64,000 nucleotides of DNA from Vermamoeba vermiformis (Eukaryota), in NCBI GenBank assembly GCA_045837725.1, contig JBEWZL010000209.1:62001-126000 (forward strand), written 5' to 3'. The position numbers and the translations under genes were made by a program. The notes below the pieces were generated by a model that saw only the letters and a program-made list of their open reading frames with translations, was not told where the DNA came from and ran no database searches. Positions 22,610 to 44,209 of the stretch are shown piece by piece (positions within the stretch are counted from its first letter, which is position 1; each line of letters starts with the position of its first letter).

Positions 22610-25600
22610 TTAGTTGTTTGTGTTAGTATTGTTGTCCACGTGCGTATCTTCAGCAACGTCCTGCGTCTTTCGCTTCTTATTCTTCTTGTTCAATTTCTTC
22701 AAGTTAGTCGCGAATTTGCTGCGCGCAATCTTGCTTCTCAATTTCAGCAAGAAGTCGCGCTCACCCTTGCTTTGCGAGAACGCATAGCCAGTAACTAATA
22801 GAAATATGAATAAAGGTGGTGATTAATAGAAGATGATGGTAGCTTACACTTGAAGTCTGGATCAGCTTCAGTGAAGTTGTTCTTGACAGTGAATGCTTGC
22901 AAAGTCGGCTTGCGAGTAGCTCTCTTGCGTGAGGGTGGAGGGCCTTGCGTGACTTCCACGGGGATCTTGTACTTTCTGATCTCTTGCACGATGTGGTGAG
23001 GTCTCGGGAAGAACGTTCTTCGGATGCTGTAACCGATATATTAGTGCTGTTCAATACGAACAATAAGGTTACGTACTATTGATTAAAAATGTCGGGAACA
23101 AGACCAATGGCCACGATAACGACCAATGTTAGCCAGAAGCTCGCTGTGCCCATGATTTCTACGGCCAAGTAGTTCTGTTGCGGGGTCAAATAAATGACCG
23201 AGTAGACCAAACAGAACGCGACGTAGACACCGAGACTGGCCCAAGTGAGCAAGTGATTGATCCAGGTCCAAGTTCTAATCTCCAAGGCAATCTTGAATGT
23301 GACCATGAACACGACGCAAGTGATGGCCAAAATACCGAGATCAAACCAGCTGACTGTACGACCGTTGCTGTACATCATACCATCGCCCAAGGCTTGTTTG
23401 GTCAAGAAGAAAATGATCACTGAGTGGAAGATTCCCTCGCCAATGAACGTAATGAACTTCTTGATGGAGAACTGGTGACACGTGTCAGTAATTCTACGTC
23501 AATATGTCGTATACTCGACTTACAGCCTCGTTGTTCTTCGGTTGGCCAGAAGCGTACAAGAGCGGGAATTTTTGCGACAATTCGCTGCTCGTGTCTTGGT
23601 CTAAGACTGAAAGGCCGACAATGGGCAGCGAAGTGAAAATGACGTTGTAGACTGTAATGTACCACGAGTCATAGTAGGTCTGCAGATGTCGTTAGCATCG
23701 ATGCATGTCAAAGCTAATTCGCAGCACTTACGTGACCAGACCAGCCGTCGTAAATGGAGAGCCAGAACTGCACCATGGAGAAGGTCATGTTCTTGTAGAA
23801 CGAGTACAAAATCAACATGCAAATACGCTTGTACGACCAACGACCGTGCACCAACAAGAGTTTTTGAAGGAATCTGAACTGGGCAATCGAATAGTCACTG
23901 GACAGCACGGCCTGCATACCCTCTTGACCACTGATACCAACACCTACAGAGTCGTTAGGGCAAGATATAATTGAAGTTGATTGAGATGTTGCTCTTCATA
24001 GACACAACAAGTACACGAGCATTCACTTGTTGTCGGTCGAAGAGCAATAACAAAAAATAGCTAAGTTGATAAACATACCGATGTGAGCTGCTTGAATCAT
24101 GCTGACATCATTGGCACTAAAAAGGAATTGATATTAATCATAAGAAGGTATTTTTGATTGAAAGGAACATACCCGTCACCAATAGCCAAAGTACGAGCCT
24201 TCAAACCGTTCTTGACGAGCTTGACCACATCGGCCTTTTGTTTCGGACTGACGCGGCAGCAGATGACCGAAGAACAGTTCTTGGCGACTTCTAACAGCTG
24301 CCAGCAATTGCTCTCGTGCAAGCCGTGTTCGAGGGCAGCACCGTTGATGACAAGAGCCCACTCCGACGAGCCTTTTGCTTTTTCTTCACGAAGTTTGGCA
24401 AGAGCGCCGTCAATTTCTTGACGCACGTCTTCTTCAGTCTCACCGTTCATAATGATCAACTTCATGTCTTCGAACAACAACGAGCATGCGTAGCCAATGT
24501 TGATGGCTGTTTCTTGCTTGTCACCAGTCAACACCCAGATCTTAAGATTGGCTTGGCGGAGGTTGTAGATCGTGTCAGGCACGCCTTGCTGCAGCTTGTC
24601 TTCAATGGCAGTGGAGCCGACCAAAGTGAAGTCAACTTCAATCTCTTCGGCGATAGCGTCCATAGCCTTGTCACGGTCAATAAGAGTCACTGAAGCCTGT
24701 TGATATTTAGCAGCCCACTCCTGATAAGTGGCATCGTCCAGCTCTCGTGAAGCCAAGCACAAAGTACGCAAACCATCGTTGGCGAACTCTTCAAGCTGTT
24801 GCCAAGTCTGTTCGAGGAAATCACACTTGACCTTGTTGCTCAAGCGCTTTTGAATAACACTGTCAGCACCCTTGACGAGCACTTTGACCTTGCCCTCAGG
24901 TGTGCGCACGACGACTGACATTCTCTTGCGGTCACTGTTGAACTCGTTGACTGCCAAGATTTCGAATCGTCGATCTTCACCGTGCACTTTAACCACAACT
25001 GAATCAATGGTACGAGTCTAATAAAGAAATTAATAATAGTACTCGTTATGTTGAAAAACAATGAGGCGTACGTGGAAATAGTGACCCATATAACGGGCAG
25101 CAGTGACAAGAGCAGCCTCGTCGGGGGAAGAAGCTTGGTACTTGACTTCACCACCTTCAGCTTCTTCGGGGATGACAGTGTGACACACGGACAAGATGGT
25201 CAAAAACTCTTCGATCATTTCTCTGCGCTCGGGGTTTTGCAAATCAGCCAAGAACTGCTTATCCTTGAACGGGAATGTGGGCTGAATAAATTGAGTGATT
25301 AGAAGGCGTTACGGTGAAATAGTTGCAATGCTTACAGGAGCGCCAGGCAGAGGTTCATCATCGGGCAAGGGAGGCAATTCACGGCCTTCACGCTTGGCTC
25401 TGTTGATCGCAATCTCCGTGTAGCCAGCACCGTACGTGACACCAGCAATGTTGCACTTCATAAAGTCCATACGATTGCACGTCAATGTGCCCGTCTTGTC
25501 GCTGAAGATGTACTCGATTTGTCCCAATTCTTCCGACAAGTTCGACGTGCGTGCATTAGCTGGCGTGTCACTCACAGGGTCGTACATCTCAATGTCACCG

Positions 25601-27371
25601 CTGATCAGTGACGCGTGGAACAATTTGACCACTTCGAGCGTGACGTAGAGTGAAATTGGGACCATGACTGCGAAGAGAATCAAAAAGGCCCAAAACACGA
25701 GGAAAGCATTCAAGTCAATGTCAAAATTGGCGGGGAACTCCAAATACCACATCTTGCTGATGTTTTGACGCTACAAGAATGAATATTAATTTTGACGTAA
25801 CTACGATGTACTTTGACATTTTGACACTTACATGCCACACGCTGTACATGACAGAGCCGATAATACACACGCTAAGCATGATGCTGAACAAAATGATCAA
25901 ACCAATGTTCATGCGCTCTTCGACCAAACTGCGCTTCAATGGTGGTCTGCTCGCGTTCTTCATCAACTTGCTCTCTTTGCCCGCGTACACAACTACACCG
26001 TAGACCCACTTGGTGTTGCGCAATGTGCAGCCCTAGCCAGGCACTACTGTCAGTCACTGCTTTCCTCATTCACATGCGCACTGTACTTACACGCAAGAGC
26101 ACTTGTTTGTTGGACAGGGAGTAAGTCTTGTCGCCCAAAGCAAGTGTCGCATCGAACTTGTAAAGTCTGTTGTTGGGCAAGTCACACTCGACCACGCCTT
26201 TGAGCTCGCTCAACGTCTTTTTGTCTTGCAGCGAATTCGTTTGTGACAGCGCTTGACGCAGCTTCAAATTGGTTTCACTGAAAAATCGAGTGAGTATTCC
26301 GATTCACATGCTATCAAAAGTTATGGACACCACTGTCACATTATTATTATCATTATTATAATATCATTCACTAGATTTGATCAAATTCTGGACGGAGTTT
26401 CAGGCGAGCACGAAATTTAGAAAAAATTGGTTCGGAGCGGCGTGGCCTCCGAAGAAATTCCCGATTCTTACCCGTCCAAGTTAGCAGTCTCAATATAAGC
26501 AATGCCTTCAATCTCGCTCGTCGATAATATGACCACATCCGCTGGAATTTGTTCTCCGCTCTTAATTTTGATGATATTACCGACTGTGATGTCGCGCCAT
26601 CGTTTGTGAGCAAATTTTTCGCCGTCTAATATTCTGCAGGGCGAATTGTTGATTTCATCGTCTTGTTTATGACGGCGCTATTTATAGAGCAAATTAATTA
26701 TGATTGTTGTATGACTTGGGTAGATCGCACGAGGAATTTCAGTATTATGACGGAATGAGATAGTAATGGTATTATTATACTTACAACATCTTCGACAATT
26801 TCTTTAATCATCGTGACCAATAAGACAATAATTAAAGGCACCCAGCTGGACCAAGAACTCAGCGGGGTAATTTGAGGGATACTCTAATAACATGATAAGT
26901 TAATATTATTCGTATTATTATACAAATTCGTGGATTTTAAGGAGGGCAAATTAAAATTCTACGGATGCAGAACCAAAAAAACCGCCAAAAAAAGTAATGT
27001 ATAGGAAGTACCTGTAAGATGGCTATAATTAAGAAATAACTGTTGGCTATACGTCTAAATTGCTCGTACAAGTTGATTGGTAAGAAACTCCACCTAAAAA
27101 GATATCGGGATCAGTGCCATAACCGAAAATTAAATTATTTATATTTCAATCACTAAAAAACATTATTAATTACATACCAAGTATATTTTGATGTCTTGAT
27201 TTGATTGTGCTTGAATTTATATTGCGCATTCGCGTTCTGATCATTGATGTGTACAATTCTAGTTTCTCTATCCGAGTCCTCTTTCTTGTCATGAGTGCCA
27301 TTTTGAGCTTCAAGTTCAATTTCATCTTTAGGGCCTCCCTCGTTGAGGGTAAGTTTCTCTTTCGACATCAT
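22610..27371 (-). CDS. P4-ATPase phospholipid flippase (Drs2/ATP8A/ALA3 clade), multi-exon
   Basis: [51 protein letters not shown] and the C-terminal regulatory GYAFS motif. Confidence 0.95.
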
Positions 27372-27983
27372 GCACAAAGAAGATCCAAAGTCAAAACCTC
27401 CTTTCAGCGAGAAGGAAAGAGAAATATATGAATATTCAGAACAATGTTATTAAGCGAGTGTGTTGCGCTGTCGCTTGAAGGAATAAAAAAGACTTTTTGA
27501 CACACGCGCATAGTTTCTACGGACAAACGGAAGAACAACAACTCAAAATAACGCAAATTCGAAATATCACTGTCATAAATATACGCTTCTTATACTTATG
27601 CGAGGCCTCTAGCTATTCTATTAGACTCCGTGACCGAACAATTATTGTTACGCATTTCGGGCTTGTACAAGAAAATAGATCCTAACCGTTGGCGATATGA
27701 CACATTTGATATCTAATAACCAATTTTTTAGCGATGAGGTTGTATTCATCAGCTCTTGTACCAGTCCATACGCCAAAATCAATTAATTTTGCTCGATCAG
27801 GTGAGTAATATCTTATCTATTGGTGGAATAAAGGCAATTGCATTCTGAAAATAAAATTGATAACAGCAAAATTGTTTCGCGGCGGCAAATATTTTTATTT
27901 TTTCAATTTTTTTGACCTAGAACAGCACGCAGATCAACAAAAAAGCAACGTAGTTTTCCTCCTCTTTTAAATTTGCTCAAAAT

Positions 27984-29141
27984 ATGGCTGCAGTACTCCT
28001 TGCAGACTTGGACAACGGTCCTCAAACGTGTATTTTATTGCAGATGTGGAACAAATTTAATTCCTTGTCCTCCAAACCAGCCTACCGAGCATTCTTCTTG
28101 CAATTTTCGCAAGATTTGTCTTTCAAGCATCGTGCATCAGAATTATTAGAACTGCTGGCTCTGTACAAAGAAAAATCAGCCAAGAAGAAAGAACTGCATT
28201 TGCAGCTAATCAGGCATTCTACCGCCACTTGGATTTTCTCCTCAAACAAAATCGGTCTCGGCGGTGTAGATACGGGGACGTTGACTGAGGCAGAGCAGTT
28301 AATCTCTTGCCAAGTTTTTGCAAATACAACCACAAAAGAGTTTATGCAAACGTTGGAATTGGTAAAGAAGACTAACTCACCGAACCCCACTTTGGCCTCG
28401 CGTCAATTAACTAAAGAGACCCTAAACAGTTGGCACGCGACACTCTTTGCCAATCTTCTCAAAAATCCAGGAACTTTTCGGCGACTGGGCCTCAAAATGG
28501 AGTCAACATTTGTTCCGCAGTTGAACATTACCCTCATCAATGAGCACTACTACCCGCATCATCAAATTATTCCGCACGCAATATCAGTCTTATGCGTACT
28601 CACGAGCTTTTTGACGAAGGAGATTGACAATATTAGTAACGAGCTCGAAAAACTGATCAATATTTTCTCTTTCGCTGCATTCGTGCAGTTTCATTTCGAG
28701 GATATTCGCCCGTATGTGGATGGTAATGGACGTCTGGGTCAATTCCTCAGCAAGCACTTTTTGGATTCAGTGCTGCCGTTGCCGTGCCCAATGTTTAAAA
28801 ACCGTGAAGTGTATTTATCTGCTTTTGTCATCGACAGTACGAAGGACCCCATAGAGGCTCCCGCAAAGTTGATGCTCTTACTACTCGACTGCGCAATTTC
28901 TTACTACAAAGAGGTGCTCGAGGTACTTAGCCGTTCGTACGACAAATTTTTGTTCGCTACAAGCAGTGCCGAATTCGAGCAGGCACTTGACATCGCGGCC
29001 ATCAGCGATGAAAAAGAAAGGAAGTTTTTGTCGTCGAGTTTTCGTATCTTGAAGATTGGCAGTACGGAATTGACGAGCCCTCACACCGGCAAGGTTTATG
29101 CAATCAAAAAAGAAGAGTTCTCTACTCAATTGGATGTCTAG
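27984..29141 (+). CDS. Intronless Fic/Fido-domain protein with a degenerate active site
   Basis: WHATLF...PGTFRR and FEDIRPYVDGNGRLGQ, compared with the canonical HPFxDGNGRxxR. Confidence 0.8.
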   Translation: MAAVLLADLDNGPQTCILLQMWNKFNSLSSKPAYRAFFLQFSQDLSFKHRASELLELLALYKEKSAKKKELHLQLIRHSTATWIFSSNKIGLGGVDTGTLTEAEQLISCQVFANTTTKEFMQTLELVKKTNSPNPTLASRQLTKETLNSWHATLFANLLKNPGTFRRLGLKMESTFVPQLNITLINEHYYPHHQIIPHAISVLCVLTSFLTKEIDNISNELEKLINIFSFAAFVQFHFEDIRPYVDGNGRLGQFLSKHFLDSVLPLPCPMFKNREVYLSAFVIDSTKDPIEAPAKLMLLLLDCAISYYKEVLEVLSRSYDKFLFATSSAEFEQALDIAAISDEKERKFLSSSFRILKIGSTELTSPHTGKVYAIKKEEFSTQLDV

Positions 29142-29143
29142 TC

Positions 29144-29214
29144 TGTAATAAATACCAGTGCACTAAAAAGGTAATTACCCGTCAGTCACTTTCCTTGACT
29201 ACGGATTCATCACA
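29144..29214. repeat. LTR copy (3' LTR in element orientation)
   Basis: tgtaataaatacc...ggattcatcaca, identical to 29396-29466. Confidence 0.95.
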
Positions 29215-29395
29215 TATCTCTCTCCTTAAGATTGTCTCCAACAACCTTATGCAAATCTAACGCTCATCGACGATCTCCTATCGCCGAACTCTTGCGCTTC
29301 AATCTACCAATAACGACAACGCTCATCAACGAACTCCTGTCGCTGAACTCTTGCGTACACCCGGGATCGATCCTTCGACCCGCTTCGCTACCAAA

Positions 29396-29466
29396 TGTAA
29401 TAAATACCAGTGCACTAAAAAGGTAATTACCCGTCAGTCACTTTCCTTGACTACGGATTCATCACA
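29396..29466. repeat. LTR copy (5' LTR in element orientation)
   Basis: Identical to 29144-29214. Confidence 0.95.
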
Positions 29467-29702
29467 AGTCATTGCAACGATCGATTGTTTAGATAGATTT
29501 AGTTATATATTTACTTCTTTAAAGTTTGTTTTGTCGGTATTTTTAGGCAGATCGTGCAATTACTCTGCCGAAATGCTCCAACGAAGCGTGACCATATAAA
29601 CACATTTATTTAACGGTTGTTATGCTAAATAAACTACCTTGTTGAGTCCAAGTGAGTATTCAACAGATTTTTTCATTATTTTTTTTTGTATCGAATGACA
29701 AC

Positions 29703-32273
29703 ATGAAGAGGAACCTCAACTTAGCGTATATTGCGCTAATTATTATATTTATATTTATTATTGCCGGTCAGGTTACCGATGGCGCAGAATATCCGTCGAG
29801 AATGTTCCCTGCTCTCGCGTTATCAAATTGGAAGTCCTCTGTATTATTGTGGGGAGCTACGAGGGATAACGCCAATCAAATGCCATTCAAGTGCGTTGAC
29901 TAATTGCTTATTGATTGAATATTAGATAATTATTGGCTTTTTTTTGCGATCTGGAAAATAATTCATTGAATATAATTTTAATTCAACAGACCACTAGGCG
30001 TTAATTCACTACGCATTGCAGACGATTATACAAAGAGCGTATTATCCGAGGACAGTTTTCTCATGCAAATTGATAACAACGTGTACGCTAATGCATCTCG
30101 GTGGGACGGTGATGTTGTCTTCAACGCTCGAGGTAAGCGGTGCCATTTAGATTAAATGTTAAATATAATTCATGAAATGCGTTTATTTATCCTTTCTATG
30201 TTTAGAGGGCGGGATCTGCACTAAAATCAATAACTATGGTGGATCAACCTTAGCGGTCGATATCGAGCAATGTTATTATTTCCCGCCACAAGAGGACTTT
30301 TATATTGTTAAATATCATATTAACAACCCTTCGTTGACTCAAACACGCACGATCCAGCTGTTCGAATACATTTCAACTCCGGCTTGCGGACAAGAGCAGC
30401 AACAACAGGGAGAATATGATGCGAACAACAATTGGGTCACTATTAATATGAATAACTGTGGCGGATTCGTATTGAGATCAATTCAAAGTCAATCGGCCAG
30501 TCAGATCCAAGTGGGTCCTGTCACCGGTCAAAATTCGCCGCTGCAACAGTGGATCCAGAGCCAAAAATTGAACGACGATACTAAGGCTCAATATAACGCA
30601 GTAAGCAGCTATTATTGTGACGCAATTCAATGTTCTAATTGATCGCCATAGCTGTCATTTGGAAGTGTCACGAGTGTCAAAGTGTCAAACATGTCATCCA
30701 CTGACCTCTATTTCATTCGATTCGCTGGTCGTGACATGAGTGCCGTTAACTCAATCTCGCAGCGAGCTCGCAGCCAATCACCCAAGTACTGGGTCCAACA
30801 AGCACGTGACCGCTACAACGCGTGGCTGAGTGCCGCACCTGTCCCGCCAGTGCTGAGCAACAATCCTGACGCGCTGACACTCTACACGTCCTCGCTGTTG
30901 ATTCTCAAGAACGGCTTGATGCCGAAAGTCGGCACGATTGTCGCGTCGTTCCATCCAGCCTATGGCTACAAGACGTGGGGCCGCGATGGATTGTTTGCAG
31001 CCATGGTCCTCGATGCTGCGGGATATCAAGATGAAGCGGAACAATACTTCCTGTGGATGGCACAGTACGTTCACTGAAACTTTTATTGCTGTTTATTTGA
31101 CACGTGTCAAAACAGGGCTCAACTGCGCGATGACGGAGGCTTTCACACCTGTTACGATTGGTTCACTGGCGGACCTGTTGGATTTGTCGAGCCTCAATTT
31201 GGTACGGCAATTCAATTCATGAGTAATTCCGTCGTGACTAATTATGGTAATTATAAGACTCCGCTGGCGCCTATTTATTGGCAATCTATCGCCACTTGGT
31301 GATCACGCCAAATGTCTCAGTTTCGTTTTTGAACGCAGTGACCCCTCGCGTGCGGCAAATTGAGGACTTCTTTTTGAAGAATGTTGGTGCATTCAACTTC
31401 GCGCCAGCTGATTACTCGATTTGGGAAGAAAGCAGCAACGGCCTCAACGGCCAGGGACTGCCGGTAAGTACTTCAATCGCGTGACTACGACGCTCACATT
31501 GCACCAGACATCGTACTTTACCTTCACGCAATCGATGGCCTGGGCTGGACTTGTTGCAGCCTCCAAGCTCGAAAACAAAGTGTTCCACGACAATCAACGC
31601 GCTCAATCGCTCAATCAACGCGCTGCACAAATCAAATCAGCCGTTGAAACGAAGCTGTGGATTGCCGATGAAGGCTATCTCGCTCGTTCAGTGAATTCAC
31701 AAACACTCGAAGTGGACCCTCGCCCCGACAGTTCATCCATGGCCGCTATTTACCTCGGCCTCGTGACTGACGCGCGCAATCAGTCCTCGCACCACTCAAT
31801 GGTCACTGCCAACTTGACGAGACTCGACGCGGGTATTGCGCGCTATTGGGGAGATCCGTTCTTTTACAACTCCATCTACAACCCTGGCGGCCAGGAAGTC
31901 GGTGCTGCCTCGCCCCCTTGGTACGCGTTGAATGGCACTAGTAGTAAGAATCGTGACTGATGTGTTTGCAGGGGAGTCGTCACCATGTTCACGGGCTGGG
32001 CCGAGTTGTTGATGGGACTGCGCGATGAGACACGCACACGTCTCGAGTGGATGGTCAAGTACGCTGCTCCTGGTCCACTGCCTGTGGGTGAGGCCATTGA
32101 CGGTGTGTCGGGCAATTACGTCATGACCGCGAGGTACGTGCTGCAGTTATTCAATCACTTGATGGTTAATTTTTATTTGCAGTCCTGATCTGTACGAGCA
32201 CGGTGGAGTGTTCATCCTCGGGGCATTATTGTACGATAATTTAACACCACCTTTGGGCCCACTGATGGTATAA
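29703..32273 (+). CDS. Secreted glycoside hydrolase family 15 (glucoamylase-like), multi-exon
   Basis: Signal peptide, YGYKTWGRDG, EPQF|DS, DYSIWEE, RYWGDPF and PVGEAID. Confidence 0.8.
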
Positions 32274-36949: not shown

Positions 36950-39900
36950 ATGGCGACTCGAAGAAGAAGAAACGTAATTTCTTCGGACGAAGAAGACATG
37001 CATGAAATTATGGAGGACGTTCCAGTCGCCCCACCTGTTGTTGCCACAAGTACAAACAGACCATCGCGTCGCAATTCTGCTCGTAGACCAAAGAAGGAGG
37101 AGGACAGCTTTGATGATTCGGAGGTACGGAAAATTCAATTTTTTTGGTAAATTTCATGCTGATTTATTGACACTTAGGATGACGGCGACTCTGCCGAAGA
37201 AGAATCTTTCGATGAAGATGACGACGATCTTCCAAAGAAAAAGGCTCCGGCAAGAACTCGAGCACCTCGTGGCGGAGCTGCCAAACAGGACATGAAACAA
37301 ACCAAATTGTCCAACTTTCCCATGAAGCAAGTCGATCCTCACGAAGAAGATAAGAAGGCCCCAGCCAAGGCTAAAGCACCACCAAAGCGAGCTCCTCCAA
37401 AACCAAAGGCCAAAGCAGAATCCAAACGAGGAACCAAGCGAAAACGTGTTGACTCGGAAGATGAAGGGGATATCGAAGACTCTGAGGGCTCAGAGGAAGA
37501 CGCAGCTTCATATGGCGATGACGAAGATAGCGAGGGAGATGAGGACGACTACTCCAATAAAAAGGGAGGTGCTAACACTGGTGGTCGTGCTCGTAAAGTT
37601 CCTTCACGTTTCACTCCAGAAGATATTGAGCCAAAGAAAACAACGCGAACTAGCTCGAGATCCAAGAAACCCGAGGACTTTGCCTTCCCCGTCGTCACTC
37701 TCCGTCAAAAGAAGAAAATTGACTACAACATGGACGACTCCAGTGACTCGGCTGACTATGCTGAGAGCGAGGGCGAAGAAGACGAAGACAAGAAGTCAAC
37801 CACTTCGAGCAAAAAGGGCAGCAAAAAAGAAGATGACACTCCTCCTCAAGATGGCGCTAAGCACGTCGAAAAGATTTTGGCGATGCGCGCAAAGAATGAA
37901 GAGGCAGAAAAACAACCGAGCGTCACTACACAATCATCGCAAGAGCTGCCACATTTGAAGCCCGGCAATCCTGATGATCCTCGAAGCAACGAATACTTGG
38001 TCAAATACAAAGACTTGGCGTACATTCACTGCGACTGGGTCTCAGCTGATTTCATCGAAGCCCAGAAGATGGGCAAACAAAAGCTCCAGCGATTTATGAA
38101 CAAGATTGCAAACACAGTGGATCCCGAAGAACCTTTCCCTGCAGATTGGGTAGTCGTAAGTAGACCTTACCATTGTTTAATATGATCACGTGACCGTTAA
38201 TAACGATGTAAATTGTAGGTCGAGCGTGTTGTTGCTAAAGAAACAAGAAAAGATGGCATTTGGTACCTTGTCAAGTGGGAAGGTCTGCCGTATTCTGAAG
38301 CTACCTGGGAACGCGAGAAAGATGTCAACGTAAGTCTTTCAGTGCATTCTTGTATTCTTGCATATTCTAATGACTGTATAATCAGGACGACTCGAAGATC
38401 AAGCAGTACGAAGAATTCAACGTGCCACCTCAAGAGTACAAGGAGCCTCCACGCCCTCCTGCCAACGACTGGTACGAGTACAAAGAATGTCCGCAATTCA
38501 AGCACGACAATCAATTGCGCGCGTATCAATTGGAAGGTCTCAACTGGCTGCGATATTGCTGGTACAACCGCACGAACAGCATTCTCGCTGACGAAATGGG
38601 TCTCGGCAAAACAGTGCAAAGTGTTTCTATTATTAACAGCATCTTCACCGAACACAAGAACCGTGGTCCTTTCTTGGTTATTGCTCCGCTGAGTACCATC
38701 CCTCATTGGGAGCGAGAGTTCGAGAACTGGACTTTCATGAACGTCATTGTCTATCATGGCAATTCTGACGCTCGTGCTTTGATGCGCAAGCACGAATTCC
38801 ACTACACTGACGAGAACAACAAAGTTGTGCAGAAGAATCTCTTCAAATTCAACACCTTGATTACTACATTCGAAATGATCATCACCGATTCGAGCATTTT
38901 GAGTCAAATCAAGTGGAAGTACGTCGTTATTGACGAGGCTCATCGTTTGAAGAATCGTAACTCGCGAATCTTGACCGAGTTCAAGCACTTCAAGTTCGAT
39001 CACCTGCTTCTGTTGACTGGTACTCCCATTCAAAACAACACCGAAGAATTGTGGACGCTGTTGAACGTTTTGGACGAAAAGAACTTCCCGTAAGTTTCGC
39101 TCATCCTAGTCTCAGTTTTAGCGCTCTTACTGATTTTGATTAAGGTCCTTGAACAATTTCTTGCTAGAATTTGGTGAACTCAAAGAAGCGTCTCAAGTCA
39201 AATCTTTGCATTCTCTTTTGAAGCCTTACTTGCTTCGTCGTATGAAAGAAGACGTCGAGAAGTCACTGGCACCCAAAGAAGAGACCATCATCGAAGTAGA
39301 GCTGACTAGAATTCAAAAGAAGTACTACAAAGCTATTTTGGAAAGAAACTTTGAGCACTTACGTGGTGGAGGCACTTCAAAGAACTTGCCGAGCTTGTTG
39401 AACATTATGATGGAGTTGCGAAAGTGCTGCAACCATCCTTTCTTGGTGAAGGGTGTCGAAGAGGCTGAAATGGCCGGCCGCACTGGTCACGAAGAGACAA
39501 ACAAAGTCTTGATCGACAGCTCCGGCAAGCTTGTGCTCATCGACAAATTGTTGCCCAAACTTCAAGCTGAAGGCCACAAAGTGCTCATTTTCTCACAAAT
39601 GATTCGAGTGCTTGACATCCTCGAAGACTACATGAACTACCGAGGCTATAAGCATGAGCGAATTGACGGCAGAGTTCGCGGTAACGATCGCCAAGCTGCT
39701 ATCGACAGATTCAGCAAGCCCGACTCAGACATTTTTGCCTTCTTGCTCTGTACTCGTGCTGGTGGTCTCGGTATCAACTTGGTTGCCGCGGATACTGTCA
39801 TTATTTACGACAGTGATTGGAACCCTCAAAACGATCTTCAAGCCCAAGCTCGTGCCCATCGCATTGGTCAACAAAAAACAGTCAAGATTTACCGATTGAT

Positions 39901-42900
39901 CACAAGAAACACCTACGAGCGACAAATGTTCGAGCGTGCTTCACTCAAGTTGGGCTTAGACCAAGCCGTCTTGAATCAAATGGAAGATAGCGATGGTCCT
40001 GCCGTTGGAGGCAAGGGCAAAGCTGCGTTGACCAGCAAAGAAGTGGATTCTTTGCTTAAATACGGTGCTTACGACATCTTCCGTGATGAAGACGATGCTG
40101 CACAAAAGTTCTGCGAAGACGACATTGATTCAATTTTGCAACGAAGAACAACGACTATTATTCAAGAGAGCAAAGAAGGCTCGTCATTTGCCAAGGCTAG
40201 CTTTGCTTCTGAATCTGCTGTGCCCGACATCGATATTGACGATCCAGAGTTCTGGAAGAAGATTATGCCCGATGTTGCAGACAAGCCTGCTTTTGACTTG
40301 ATGGCCGAGCCTAGACAGAGAAAGCAAGTGCAACGTCTTGAAGTCGCCATGTCGGACGAGTCAGATTCTGACGACGATGATGATCGCGACACAGCTGTTA
40401 TGCCAACTGGTGGTGGTACTGATGAAGACTCCGATCAGTTGTACGCTGACGACGAGAACGCCGATGACCTCAACCCTGAAGATCACGAGTTGCCTCACCA
40501 CCTCACTCAAAAGAAGAAGGGCAAGAAAGGAGAGTGGAGCGCTGTGCACAGAAACCGCTTCCAAAAATCGATGCTCAACTTCGGCTTTGGTCGTTGGAAG
40601 AGAATCAGAGAAGCAGCGAGACTTGGCAATCGTCCTCTCCGTGAGATTGCTCTCTATGGTCTGGCATACCTGTGCAAGATCGCCAAAGTGTTGAAGGAGG
40701 ATGAGAAAGCGTTGTTCACTCGCGTCTACAGCAATGATCCAGTTGAAAATGTCGAGGATAACACTGACAAGGCTGGAGAGGAAGCTGCAGTCCCAGCTCT
40801 CGAGCAACTGATCAAGGGCGATGAATCGAAAGCCAACGCTGAAGTCAAGACAGAGACAACTCCTGCAACCACAGAGGAACAAAAGCCCGCTGTTCAAGGT
40901 CCCAATGAAGGCGCTGTAATTCTCGAGCAATCCGCCGCCCCTGTGAAGGTGGAACCTGCTCTTGCACCAATGCAAGTTGAGAAGCCCGTAGAAACAAGTG
41001 CGGAAGTCAAGACTGAGACAACTCCCGCAGCTACAGAGGAACAAAAGCCGGCTGAGGCTGCTGCTGCCCAACCTGAGCAAGCTGCTGAAGCCCCTAAAGA
41101 AGAGGCTAAAACAGAGGACAAAGCAGAGGTCAAGGACGAAAAGGCTCCTCAACCAGAGCAAACATCTGAGCCCATGCAAGTCGACCAGGCCACGACAGAA
41201 GGCGCAGCGACTGAAGCTAAGCCCGCTGAAGCCAGTGCTGCTACGACTGAGTCGAAGCCTCAGGATGAAAAGAGTGAGGCTGCTGAGGAAGCCAAGAGCG
41301 AGGCCGATAAGAATCTCGAACCGCATCGCGTTTACGAAAATGATCCTTCGTTGAACGATCCGAAGTGGTTGGAAAGCTTAGAAAAGACAGGCCCGTCAAT
41401 TGTCCGCCGTTTGGAACTTTTGGCCGAAATTGGTTACCTCGTGCGCACCAACTTCAGCGAGTTCGAGGGCACTTGGGTTGACTACGAGTTCCCTGACTAT
41501 CCTAACTGGGGCGAGCAAGAAGATCGCGATTTGTTGAAGGGCACTTACAAGCACGGATTTGGCAAGTACGAGAAGATTCGTACCGACCCTGATTTGTGCT
41601 TCCTTGGCAAGCCCAAATCTTTCTACGAGCAAGAGCCTGTCGATGAAAAGAAGAAAAAGAAACGCGAAAAAGCCGAAAGAGAGCGTGCTGAGAGGGCTAA
41701 GGCCGAAGCCGAAAAGGCTGCCGCTGAGAAGGGCGAGGCCATGCAAGTGGATCAGTCCGCTGCCGAAGGTGCCGCACCAAGCGAACCCAACGCTGAAGAG
41801 AAGCCCGCTGAAGTAGCCAAGACTGAACCTAAAGTCGAAGAACCAAAGGCCGAAGACAAACCAGCTGAAGCCAAAACTGATGACAGTGAATGGCTCGCTG
41901 CTGGTCCACTCTCACTGCGTGTCAAATGGCTGCTGAAAGGTTTCAATTCCCTCCGCAAACGAATGGAGAAGCAAAAGCGTCGCCATGAGTCTCAAGCAGC
42001 GAAGGACAAGAAACAGAAGATGAAGCAAGAGCGCAAAGACAAGCTCGAAACTGAGTGGTCGAAGCGTGAAAAGCAAGACTTCTATCGCGCACTCATCACT
42101 TACGGTGTGCCTATTGATCCTGAAACTAAGGAGAACAACTTCGACTTCTTGAAACATAAGGCGAAGCTTGGTTTCAAGAACAGCCAGACTATCAGCACTT
42201 ACTACGTCAACTTGCTGAAGATGTGCCGTCAGCTCAAGCAATCCAAGTCTGCAGATCCCACCAAGCACAAGCACAAGAAGCAGAAGACTGGTGAAGAGGC
42301 CGAAAAGGTTGAGAAGCCCGAGGACTACGGCCTGTCTGAGATCCAAGCCATGCGTGCCTTGGAACGTGTTATTATGTTCATCAACTTGCGAAAGAAAGTG
42401 CTTACGATGAGCTCTGAAGAGTTGAATAACCGCTTCAAATACGCGCGACCTCGAGAGGCCAAGTTGCCCTCATGGTGGGTGACACCTGAACACGACATTG
42501 CTCTCTTGAAGGGTGTCGACAAGCACGGCTACAGCAAGTGGGAAGATGTGTGCAATGACAAGGACTTACCATTCTTTGAAATCTTGTCTCCAATGAAGCC
42601 TCTTGAAAAGAAAGAAAAGAAAAAGAAGCCGAAGCCCGGCGCACCTGCAGCTGATGCCAACGCCAATAACACCAACGTAGCTCCTACGACTGGTTCAGAT
42701 GCAGCCGCTGCTGCTCCCGCTGAGGCTAAACCAGCAGCTCTTGATCTCCCTGTTGCTGAAAAAGATCACGAAGCCTCGACTGAAGAAAAGAAGGAGGAAG
42801 ATAAGGATGACAAAGAAGATAAGGACGACAATGAAGGCGAGGGTGAAGATCAGAAGTTCAAGACTGGTCTCGCTCAGCACATGCCACGCGAAAAGATCTT

Positions 42901-44209
42901 GTGGAAGCGCATTCAACAGTTGATCAAGTTGGCCACTGACACTCAACTGCAGTTCAAGCCTGCTCCTCCTAACGCAGAACCCAACAAGGCCACTAAGCAA
43001 GCCATGCTCTCATTCGGCAATGGATCTATCCTCGTAGCTTCGAATGACGACAACAAGGACATGGATGACTTCCAAGCTCCCAAGAAGAAGTCGGCAAAGA
43101 AGAGAAAGCGTGAAGATGGCGCGGAAGAAGGAGGAAACGATGACGACAAGCCTGCCAAGAAGCGTCGTACTGGCGCTAACGGCCGTGGTCGCAATGTTGA
43201 CATTCACCGCGACTCAAGCGACAACATCGTCTTCCCCATCAAGATCGGTGTTGCAACATTGATTGAAGCTCTCGGCACCATCAACACCAAGCCCAACTTC
43301 CATTCGGAGAAGTACATTTGGCCCGTTGGTTTCAAGAGCACACGTGAATTCACGAGCACGAAGAACATCGACGAGCGCTGCATGTACACGTGTGAAATTG
43401 TTGATGGCGGTGACAAACCAATCTTCAAAGTCACTCCCGCTGACGATCCTGAGACCCCCAGTGAAGCTAGCTCTGCCTCACAAGCCTGGAAGCAAATTTT
43501 GATGCGCATTAACGAGCGCAAGCCCGAGCAAGCGAAGAGAACCTCAGTCTCTGGTCCTGAATACTTTGGCTTCGGCTTCCCTGCCATCGCTGACCTGATC
43601 GCCAAGCTGCCCAATGCAGACAAGTGCACTAAGTACAAGGGTCCTGATGCAGTTGAACGTCCTGGCAAGAAAGAGGACGAAGAAGGCGATGACGCTCCTC
43701 AACCAAAGAAGAAGAAAGAGGAGTCTGGCGAGCAGAAAGAAAAGAAGAAAAAGAAGTCTAAGATCTCTTTCCCTGCCCTCGCTGTCGAGCCTGCCAAACA
43801 AAAGACCGCCGAAGGCACTGCTCGATTTAACTTGCCCGTGCAAGCTCCAATGCCATCGCTTGGAGGACTGCCAACTATCGCCTCGCTGCCCATGCACCGC
43901 CCTGAAGTGACACCTGTCAACATTCAACCTGCGCCAGTGAGCATTCAACCCGCCCCTGTCAATATTCAACCTGCCCCAATCAACTTGCAGCCCGTGCCCA
44001 CTGGCGCTGTGTCGTTGTTGAGCGATGAGACCTTCGTGCCCAGTGTTCCTAGCGTGCACCCAATGCCCATGATGCAAGGCCAATGGTACCCTGCCCCTAT
44101 GTCTTATGCTGGGTACCCTCCGTTGATGCCTGTGCATCAGTTCCCTGTGATCGCCAACCCGCAGTTGAACAACAACAATAACAACAATCAACAGCCGCAG
44201 CAGAAGTAA
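36950..44209 (+). CDS. CHD: CHD-family chromatin remodeller (tandem chromodomains, SNF2 ATPase, SANT/SLIDE-like, C-terminal FYR), 5 coding exons
   Basis: [15 protein letters not shown] and [46 protein letters not shown]-like [27 protein letters not shown]. Confidence 0.95.

Follow-up and report, generated by a model that had tools for sequence, protein, structure and literature searches.

At positions 29140 to 29470 of a 64-kb stretch of Vermamoeba vermiformis contig JBEWZL010000209.1 (the whole 64,000 nucleotides that were analyzed, here called the window), directly behind the stop codon of a gene for a Fic-domain protein, lies a small element built around two identical 71-nucleotide (nt) direct repeats. 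The repeats stand 252 nt apart, start to start, and enclose a 181-nt interior, giving a unit of 323 nt (Table 1). They read TGTAAT...ATCACA on the plus strand and TGTGAT...ATTACA on the minus strand, the latter being the sense of the element, and we treat them as long terminal repeats (LTRs). We consider the element to be a complete, non-autonomous LTR retrotransposon of the kind called terminal-repeat retrotransposon in miniature (TRIM) or small LTR retrotransposon (SMART), lying on the minus strand and recently mobile, and put the probability of this interpretation at roughly 85%. Short LTRs, TG..CA ends, a polypurine tract, a non-coding interior, a target-site duplication and occurrence at several loci all place it with TRIM/SMART elements.

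Anatomy of the element

An earlier sequence-only reading of this stretch, made without database searches, had described a 323-bp element with identical 71-bp TG..CA LTRs. A repeat search bears this out: at up to three mismatches the LTR has two copies in the window, and not one of 100 shuffles contained any. On the minus strand the order of parts is GACT, LTR, TT, TGGTAGCGAAGC, about 150 nt, AAGGAGAGAGA, TA, LTR, GACT. The 12-mer TGGTAGCGAAGC, which resembles a primer-binding site (PBS), begins two bases after the 5´ LTR, just where that reading had put it, and has a single match in the window at up to one mismatch. Such a bare 12-mer is not rare, with at least one match at one mismatch in 21 of 100 shuffles; its position is what counts. 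At the opposite end, a 13-nt purine tract abutting the 3´ LTR had been claimed. A purine tract is indeed found there, but it consists of 11 nt of pure purine, AAGGAGAGAGA, followed by two spacer bases, so that it does not abut the LTR. The 2-nt gap on this side mirrors the 2-nt gap between the PBS and the other LTR.

The remaining structural claims stood as well. The 4-bp target-site duplication AGTC is present at both flanks, and the interior offers no plausible retroelement coding capacity, with room in its 181 nt for about 60 codons at most. Anywhere else in the window, no second LTR-like direct repeat pair (at least 40 nt, within 15 kb) was found. Folding of the whole 323 nt gave a z score of -4.2, with 0 of 100 shuffles as stable, for a sequence that includes both full LTRs, unlike the real RNA. 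A smaller hairpin, predicted in both the minimum free energy (MFE) and the centroid structures, overlaps the last base of the PBS and includes GGATCGATCC.

Table 1. Positions of the element, its parts and the adjoining gene in the window
Feature	Positions	Strand	Basis or remark
Fic-domain gene, 385 codons from first ATG	27984-29141	+	PF02661, E 5.7e-8
Target-site duplication AGTC, left copy	29140-29143	.	overlaps last two bases of the Fic stop TAG (29139-29141)
3´ LTR (element sense), 71 nt, TG..CA ends	29144-29214	-	100% identical to the other LTR
Spacer TA between purine tract and 3´ LTR, 2 nt	29215-29216	-	direct reading
Polypurine tract AAGGAGAGAGA, presumed plus-strand primer	29217-29227	-	direct reading; putative function
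Internal region, 181 nt, non-coding	29215-29395	-	sequence reading and word depth
Internal repeat 1, imperfect, 38 nt	29259-29296	-	repeat search; spacing 59 nt
Internal repeat 2, 38 nt, 89% identical to repeat 1	29318-29355	-	repeat search
Predicted RNA hairpin, 8 pairs, one bulged U, 4-nt loop	29362-29382	-	in MFE and centroid structures
Primer-binding site TGGTAGCGAAGC, complement of a predicted tRNA 3´ end ...GCTTCGCTACCA	29382-29393	-	sequence match
Spacer TT between 5´ LTR and PBS, 2 nt	29394-29395	-	direct reading
5´ LTR (element sense), 71 nt	29396-29466	-	repeat search
Target-site duplication AGTC, right copy	29467-29470	.	sequence and empty-site contig

An empty allele, further copies and a longer-LTR relative

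Four public sequencing runs were compared over positions 28600 to 30000: X1, the probable source run (Logan contigs); X5, a water metagenome; X6, an aquifer metagenome; and X21, raw RNA-seq reads carrying the same species label. A contig from X6 shows the site without the element. This contig, record 16 (216 nt, two mismatches, flanks about 99% identical), covers 28995-29139 and then resumes at 29467-29537. The 327 nt skipped at the joint are the 323-nt element plus one AGTC; four letters fit either side, nothing lies between, and a single AGTC is kept. From this joint it follows that the LTR-interior-LTR unit came in whole, in a single event with a 4-bp duplication. At the site itself, the contigs of the source run show neither a joint nor variants. 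In X5 the flanks differ from the window by roughly 1-3% mismatches plus some gaps, and record 11 ends at 29143 with six unplaced letters. The insertion at this locus is genuine and recent, being either young or still polymorphic. A recent insertion had been proposed from the letters alone, and the empty site with a single AGTC that this reading called for is now supplied by an independent metagenome.

Our statements on copy number rest on Logan contigs, which are short and from which rare variants are dropped. In the source run, word depth is 1100 and 1016 for the LTR unitigs, 370 and 377 for the flanks and 324 for the interior, which suggests about three LTRs and one interior. Contigs of the same run place a foreign flank ending in ATTT before the LTR start (29144) and a foreign flank starting with ATTT behind the LTR end (29467). 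This ATTT-bordered LTR, with its separate 4-bp duplication, fits a solo LTR, or else one additional copy seen at its outer ends. Record 17 of X6 matches the window, with one mismatch, from 29319 in the interior across a complete short LTR to 29467 and then enters a different flank; taken with the empty site in the same run, this means that one strain pool, in which the window site is empty, carries the element elsewhere. The short-LTR form therefore stands in at least three flank contexts (the window AGTC, the source-run ATTT copy and X6 record 17), and from these we conclude that the short form itself integrated repeatedly. Of the further copies and solo LTRs that the sequence-only reading had named as things to look for, the source run and two metagenomes supply LTR or element copies with other flanks, one of them a solo-like LTR with an ATTT duplication. 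The copy number of the family is low.

The X5 contigs point to a relative with a different LTR. Record 12 holds LTR, interior, PBS and the first six LTR bases (29155-29401) with seven mismatches and one gap, and records 13 and 14 hold LTRs adjoining other flanks. In records 12 and 13, unlike sequence stands between the 60 nt that begin the LTR (element sense) and its last 6 nt (ATTACA), and is seen as loose ends of 99 and 52 letters; such loose ends of contigs are readable over 30 letters each. The split LTR means that a longer-LTR form of the family exists, and the 71-nt LTR would most simply be a deletion derivative of it. A more tentative proposal, to which we give clearly less than even odds, is that the 71 nt form a minimal functional LTR, with U3, R and U5 all inside them, derived by deletion from a longer LTR that persists in a sister strain, and that the family is currently active in a deeply branching, unsampled free-living protist. 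If this is true, the LTR would be one of the shortest transposition-competent LTRs outside plants and would define, by a natural example, what Ty3/gypsy-like machinery minimally requires in cis for LTR retrotransposition.

Primer, partner and competing explanations

As a PBS, TGGTAGCGAAGC predicts a tRNA ending in GCTTCGCT-A-CCA, that is, a tRNA with an A1:U72 first pair. This pair marks eukaryotic and archaeal initiator tRNAs. ARAGORN found no tRNA genes in the window. Metagenome contigs were searched with a pattern made up of the predicted acceptor stem and an initiator anticodon arm (a short motif). The pattern occurs at no fewer than 125 loci in environmental contigs, with 137 matches and 34 distinct sequences among the matches listed, and within that same set the eukaryote-initiator T-loop GATCGAAA is present in 23 of the 34 distinct sequences and absent from 11. 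The predicted tRNA 3´ end (...CTTCGCTACCA) matches eukaryote-type initiator tRNA genes in environmental DNA, and initiator tRNAs with exactly this 3´ end are common in environmental eukaryotes. The contiguous match to the PBS is 11 nt by design and reaches 12 nt in 5 and 13 nt in 6 of the 137 copies among the matches listed.

Two side observations concern these tRNA genes themselves. The commonest sequence accounts for 47 of the 137 matches among those listed. On several marine or freshwater contigs (L001, L038, L042, L044, L060, L064 and L075), eukaryote-type initiator tRNA-Met genes form head-to-tail pairs, exactly 149 nt from start to start.

The 323-bp unit inserted just after the stop codon of the Fic gene, in a short intergenic region, and duplicated AGTC as it did so. 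By the mechanism that we propose, the particle of an autonomous LTR element would package in trans an RNA that runs from the 5´ LTR to the 3´ LTR. The host initiator tRNA-Met would then anneal to the PBS and prime minus-strand DNA, the polypurine tract would prime the plus strand, and integrase would trim the two extra bases at each end (TT and TA), expose the CA ends and join them over a 4-bp staggered cut. Retroviruses and Ty3 typically combine 2-nt spacers with 3´-end processing, and Ty1 has a PBS that abuts the LTR and makes a 5-bp duplication. By this comparison, a Ty3/gypsy- or retrovirus-like partner fits the 2-nt spacers and the 4-bp duplication better than a Ty1/copia-like one. In the dictyostelid Ty3/gypsy element DGLT-A, too, 2 bp lie between the left LTR and the PBS, according to extracts of its description (PMC5006619), and this spacing, along with the 4-bp duplications given for plant retrozymes in extracts of PMC5680766, favors the Ty3/gypsy side. 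A Ty3/gypsy-like autonomous partner is our best guess, at somewhat better than even odds.

Several points weigh against the interpretation of the element as a mobile TRIM or loosen it. Pfam scans covered 63 of the 144 window open reading frames (ORFs) of at least 90 amino acids, namely all 39 of at least 150 and 24 of 120-149 amino acids, and in these 63 no reverse transcriptase, RNase H, integrase, gag or protease domain was found, all domains detected being ordinary cellular ones. A pattern joining the LTR end to the PBS gave 0 matches in JGI metagenome contigs, and the LTR start gave 0 matches each in GTDB genome contigs and IMG/VR. Among source-run contigs, no LTR is joined to a different internal region. 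A 71-nt LTR has little room for a promoter, an R region and 3´-end signals, and none was identified. In the RNA-seq run X21, of which 46% was read, the 1.4-kb stretch received one read and the element none. The word depth used above is not copy number and serves only as a rough check. Identical LTRs bound the age loosely, with 0 differences in 71 allowing up to about 4% divergence at 95%. Finally, 11 of the matched PBS bases were fixed by the search pattern itself, so that in this part the tRNA search is circular; with those bases set in advance and the contigs not tied to the host, the tRNA match is partial support only.

Two IMG/VR matches to a looser pattern, ATTACA-NN-PBS, lie inside phage-like coding sequence, come without LTR similarity or a tRNA, and were discarded as chance. 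Among the public runs listed as sharing the stretch, there was no RNA run.

Other origins were also considered. A tandem or segmental duplication, or an artefact of assembly, would make of the structure a 252-bp unit repeated 1.28 times, with TG..CA ends, PBS and polypurine tract all arising by chance; the single full copy in the window and an interior that is apparently single-copy in the source run agree with such an origin. The empty allele, however, lacks 323 nt and one AGTC and not one 252-nt unit. A joint that skips exactly the element and one AGTC rules out both an assembly duplication and a 252-nt tandem duplication. It is also telling that the PBS and the polypurine tract are both separated from their LTR by exactly 2 nt, that LTRs are found beside unrelated flanks, and that the LTR-internal junctions recur in two independent metagenomes; this last result settles the worry about a duplication in the assembly that the sequence-only reading had itself voiced. 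We give this origin next to no weight. The element could also be a dead, immobile relic. The 71-nt LTR would then be an internally deleted remnant, only longer-LTR relatives would have moved, and the identity of the two LTRs would be due to their shortness. X5 records 12 and 13, with their longer-LTR relative sharing the interior, the 60 nt and ATTACA, are in line with this, as is the failure to assign a promoter or R region within 71 nt. Yet each of the three or more flank contexts of the short form fits a separate integration, and the same short form occupies both LTRs, as expected after reverse transcription, which makes a relic unlikely.

The element could instead belong to a special subclass with an RNA device of its own, whether a Cassandra-like element with an RNA polymerase III (Pol III) promoter of 5S or tRNA type within the LTR or close to it, or a retrozyme with hammerhead ribozymes. 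Extracts of PMC5680766 give plant retrozymes, too, 4-bp duplications and a tRNA-Met PBS. The interior has no run of four T, and by eye there is a B-box-like GGATCGATCC beside the PBS and a weak A-box-like TAGTGCACTGG in the LTR, judged against the consensus motifs. In a permissive Rfam scan with E values up to 10, the stretch 29000-29600 nevertheless showed no 5S RNA, tRNA or hammerhead, and the lack of a 5S or hammerhead match argues that the element is neither a Cassandra-type TRIM nor a retrozyme. A run of five T lies just upstream of the A-box-like motif, in a stretch that Pol III must read through, so that Pol III would stop early; the Pol III reading, made at the level of motifs and contradicted by this run, was set aside as unsupported. 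The likeness of the PBS-proximal sequence (…CCCGGGATCGA…) to initiator-tRNA T arms was likewise rejected as chance, its best score of 9 being equalled in 184 of 500 shuffles. An RNA device of this sort is very unlikely here. The same Rfam scan returned four chance-level matches (U7-like, MIR393-like, togavirus-CRE-like and lncRNA-like). The U7 snRNA-like match lies downstream of the element at 29505-29580 (+), scores 17.5 bits against a gathering threshold of 34 with an E value of 0.3, and is probably chance.

Relation to known elements and the surrounding genes

The element is a further case of an already known kind, and the understanding of such elements is unchanged by it. Classic TRIM LTRs lie in a range longer than 71 nt. 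The 71-nt LTR is among the shortest, and the element is not the smallest known. For comparison, extracts of published descriptions give 233 bp and 52-bp LTRs, shorter than those here, for the plant TRIM CcaRetroS9 (PMC4717578), and 292 bp with 85-bp LTRs and a 122-bp interior for FRetro129, a SMART of grasses (PMC3281118). Of the earlier claim that the element is near the small end of LTR elements, the small size stands; next to these published elements of 233 and 292 bp, it is not near the record.

The likeness to plant TRIMs is extensive. In the extracts of PMC4717578, these are gene-associated, and new insertions among them were shown by empty orthologous sites. Common to them and the element are short identical LTRs, TG..CA ends, a polypurine tract, a tiny non-coding interior and a PBS, in our element of putative tRNA-Met type, and also a position beside genes, empty orthologous sites, solo LTRs and a partner that in plants is usually unknown (PMC4717578, extracts). 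The differences from the plant cases described there are a 4-bp rather than a 5-bp duplication and a protist rather than a plant host. The copy number is also very low by comparison, about one full copy and one extra LTR in the source run. With FRetro129 the element shares its size class, identical short LTRs, TGT..ACA-type ends and the lack of coding capacity, as well as solo LTRs despite very short LTRs; FRetro129 prefers genic regions (PMC3281118, extracts). The extracts also record for FRetro129 a 5-bp duplication and a Ty1-copia candidate partner that shares its interior, PBS and polypurine tract, whereas the 2-nt spacers and the 4-bp duplication of our element point away from a Ty1-copia partner (PMC3281118).

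Larger elements offer looser parallels. The amoebozoan Ty3/gypsy elements DGLT-A and Skipper are coding elements of 3.4-7.5 kb with LTRs of 206-563 bp; the extracts of PMC5006619 report that no tRNA was detected that would pair with the DGLT-A PBS and that many Skipper elements are without a canonical PBS. By its CHD-type protein (see below), the host is nearest to the named lineage from which these LTR elements were described, and we liken them to the element by description only (PMC5006619, extracts). Plant retrozymes have in common with the element that they are non-autonomous, with 4-bp duplications, a polypurine tract and a tRNA-Met PBS, putative in our element; their movement is ascribed to Ty3/gypsy elements. 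According to the same extracts their length is 1-1.5 kb, and their LTRs, of about 300-400 bp, carry hammerhead ribozymes, whereas no hammerhead was found in this element (PMC5680766). In a haptophyte, 240 'potential TRIM' sequences are listed in the extracts of PMC5963040, which state that they were not manually checked.

No sequence similarity was found between the element and anything searched. In the literature searched, we found no characterized TRIM from an amoeba or similar protist, which is not proof of absence. The PBS string gave only unrelated primer matches in the 10 papers listed out of 60, and the whole word 'TRIM' is absent from a Dictyostelium giganteum preprint. With its filled and empty alleles, the locus gives a clean record of a miniature LTR retrotransposon outside plants and animals, and hand-checked cases of this sort appear to be rare. 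It shows that LTR-retroelement machinery is active in this lineage now or was so recently. Presence or absence of the element at the 3´ flank of the Fic gene can serve as a strain marker, and the minimal needs of an LTR could be studied on this very small natural substrate.

Relative to the Fic-domain gene, the element is antisense and occupies the 3´ flank; the insertion leaves the ORF and stop codon of the gene unaltered. Because the duplication begins at the second base of the TAG stop, the Fic ORF and its stop are identical in the filled and empty alleles. The LTR also puts AATAAA 6 nt past the Fic stop on the plus strand (29147-29152), and this inserted motif could alter Fic 3´-end formation. 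The closest relatives of the Fic/DOC protein are environmental proteins at 72% and 54% identity, and the only named match is from the jakobid Andalucia godoyi, at 31%.

The window as a whole is gene-dense and eukaryotic, with genes for a CHD-type remodeler with FYRN/FYRC, an Hsp104/ClpB-like ATPase, a split P4-ATPase, Ras, a proteasome subunit and SDE2. A fragment of the CHD-type protein is 92-95% identical to environmental proteins and, among named organisms, 55% to Physarum, 53% to Arcella, 53% to dictyostelids and 50-58% to oomycetes and animals. Parts of the stretch recur in public runs with the labels water, aquifer, soil, drinking-water and wastewater metagenome, X5 and X6 being the two compared in detail. 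On the best reading, the host is a free-living protist from a poorly sampled lineage, possibly an amoebozoan.

Two of these genes show features of their own. The P4 phospholipid-translocating P-type ATPase gene, at 22761-27446 (-), has many short exons and small introns, and in our reading of its exons illustrates the intron-rich, compact gene structure of the host. The CHD-type remodeler, at 37178-44209 (+), extends over several ORFs with chromo, SNF2, helicase-C, CHD HTH, Myb-like and FYRN/FYRC domains, and within it a 55-nt coding repeat occurs at 40838-40892 and again at 41000-41054, with 89% identity between the copies.

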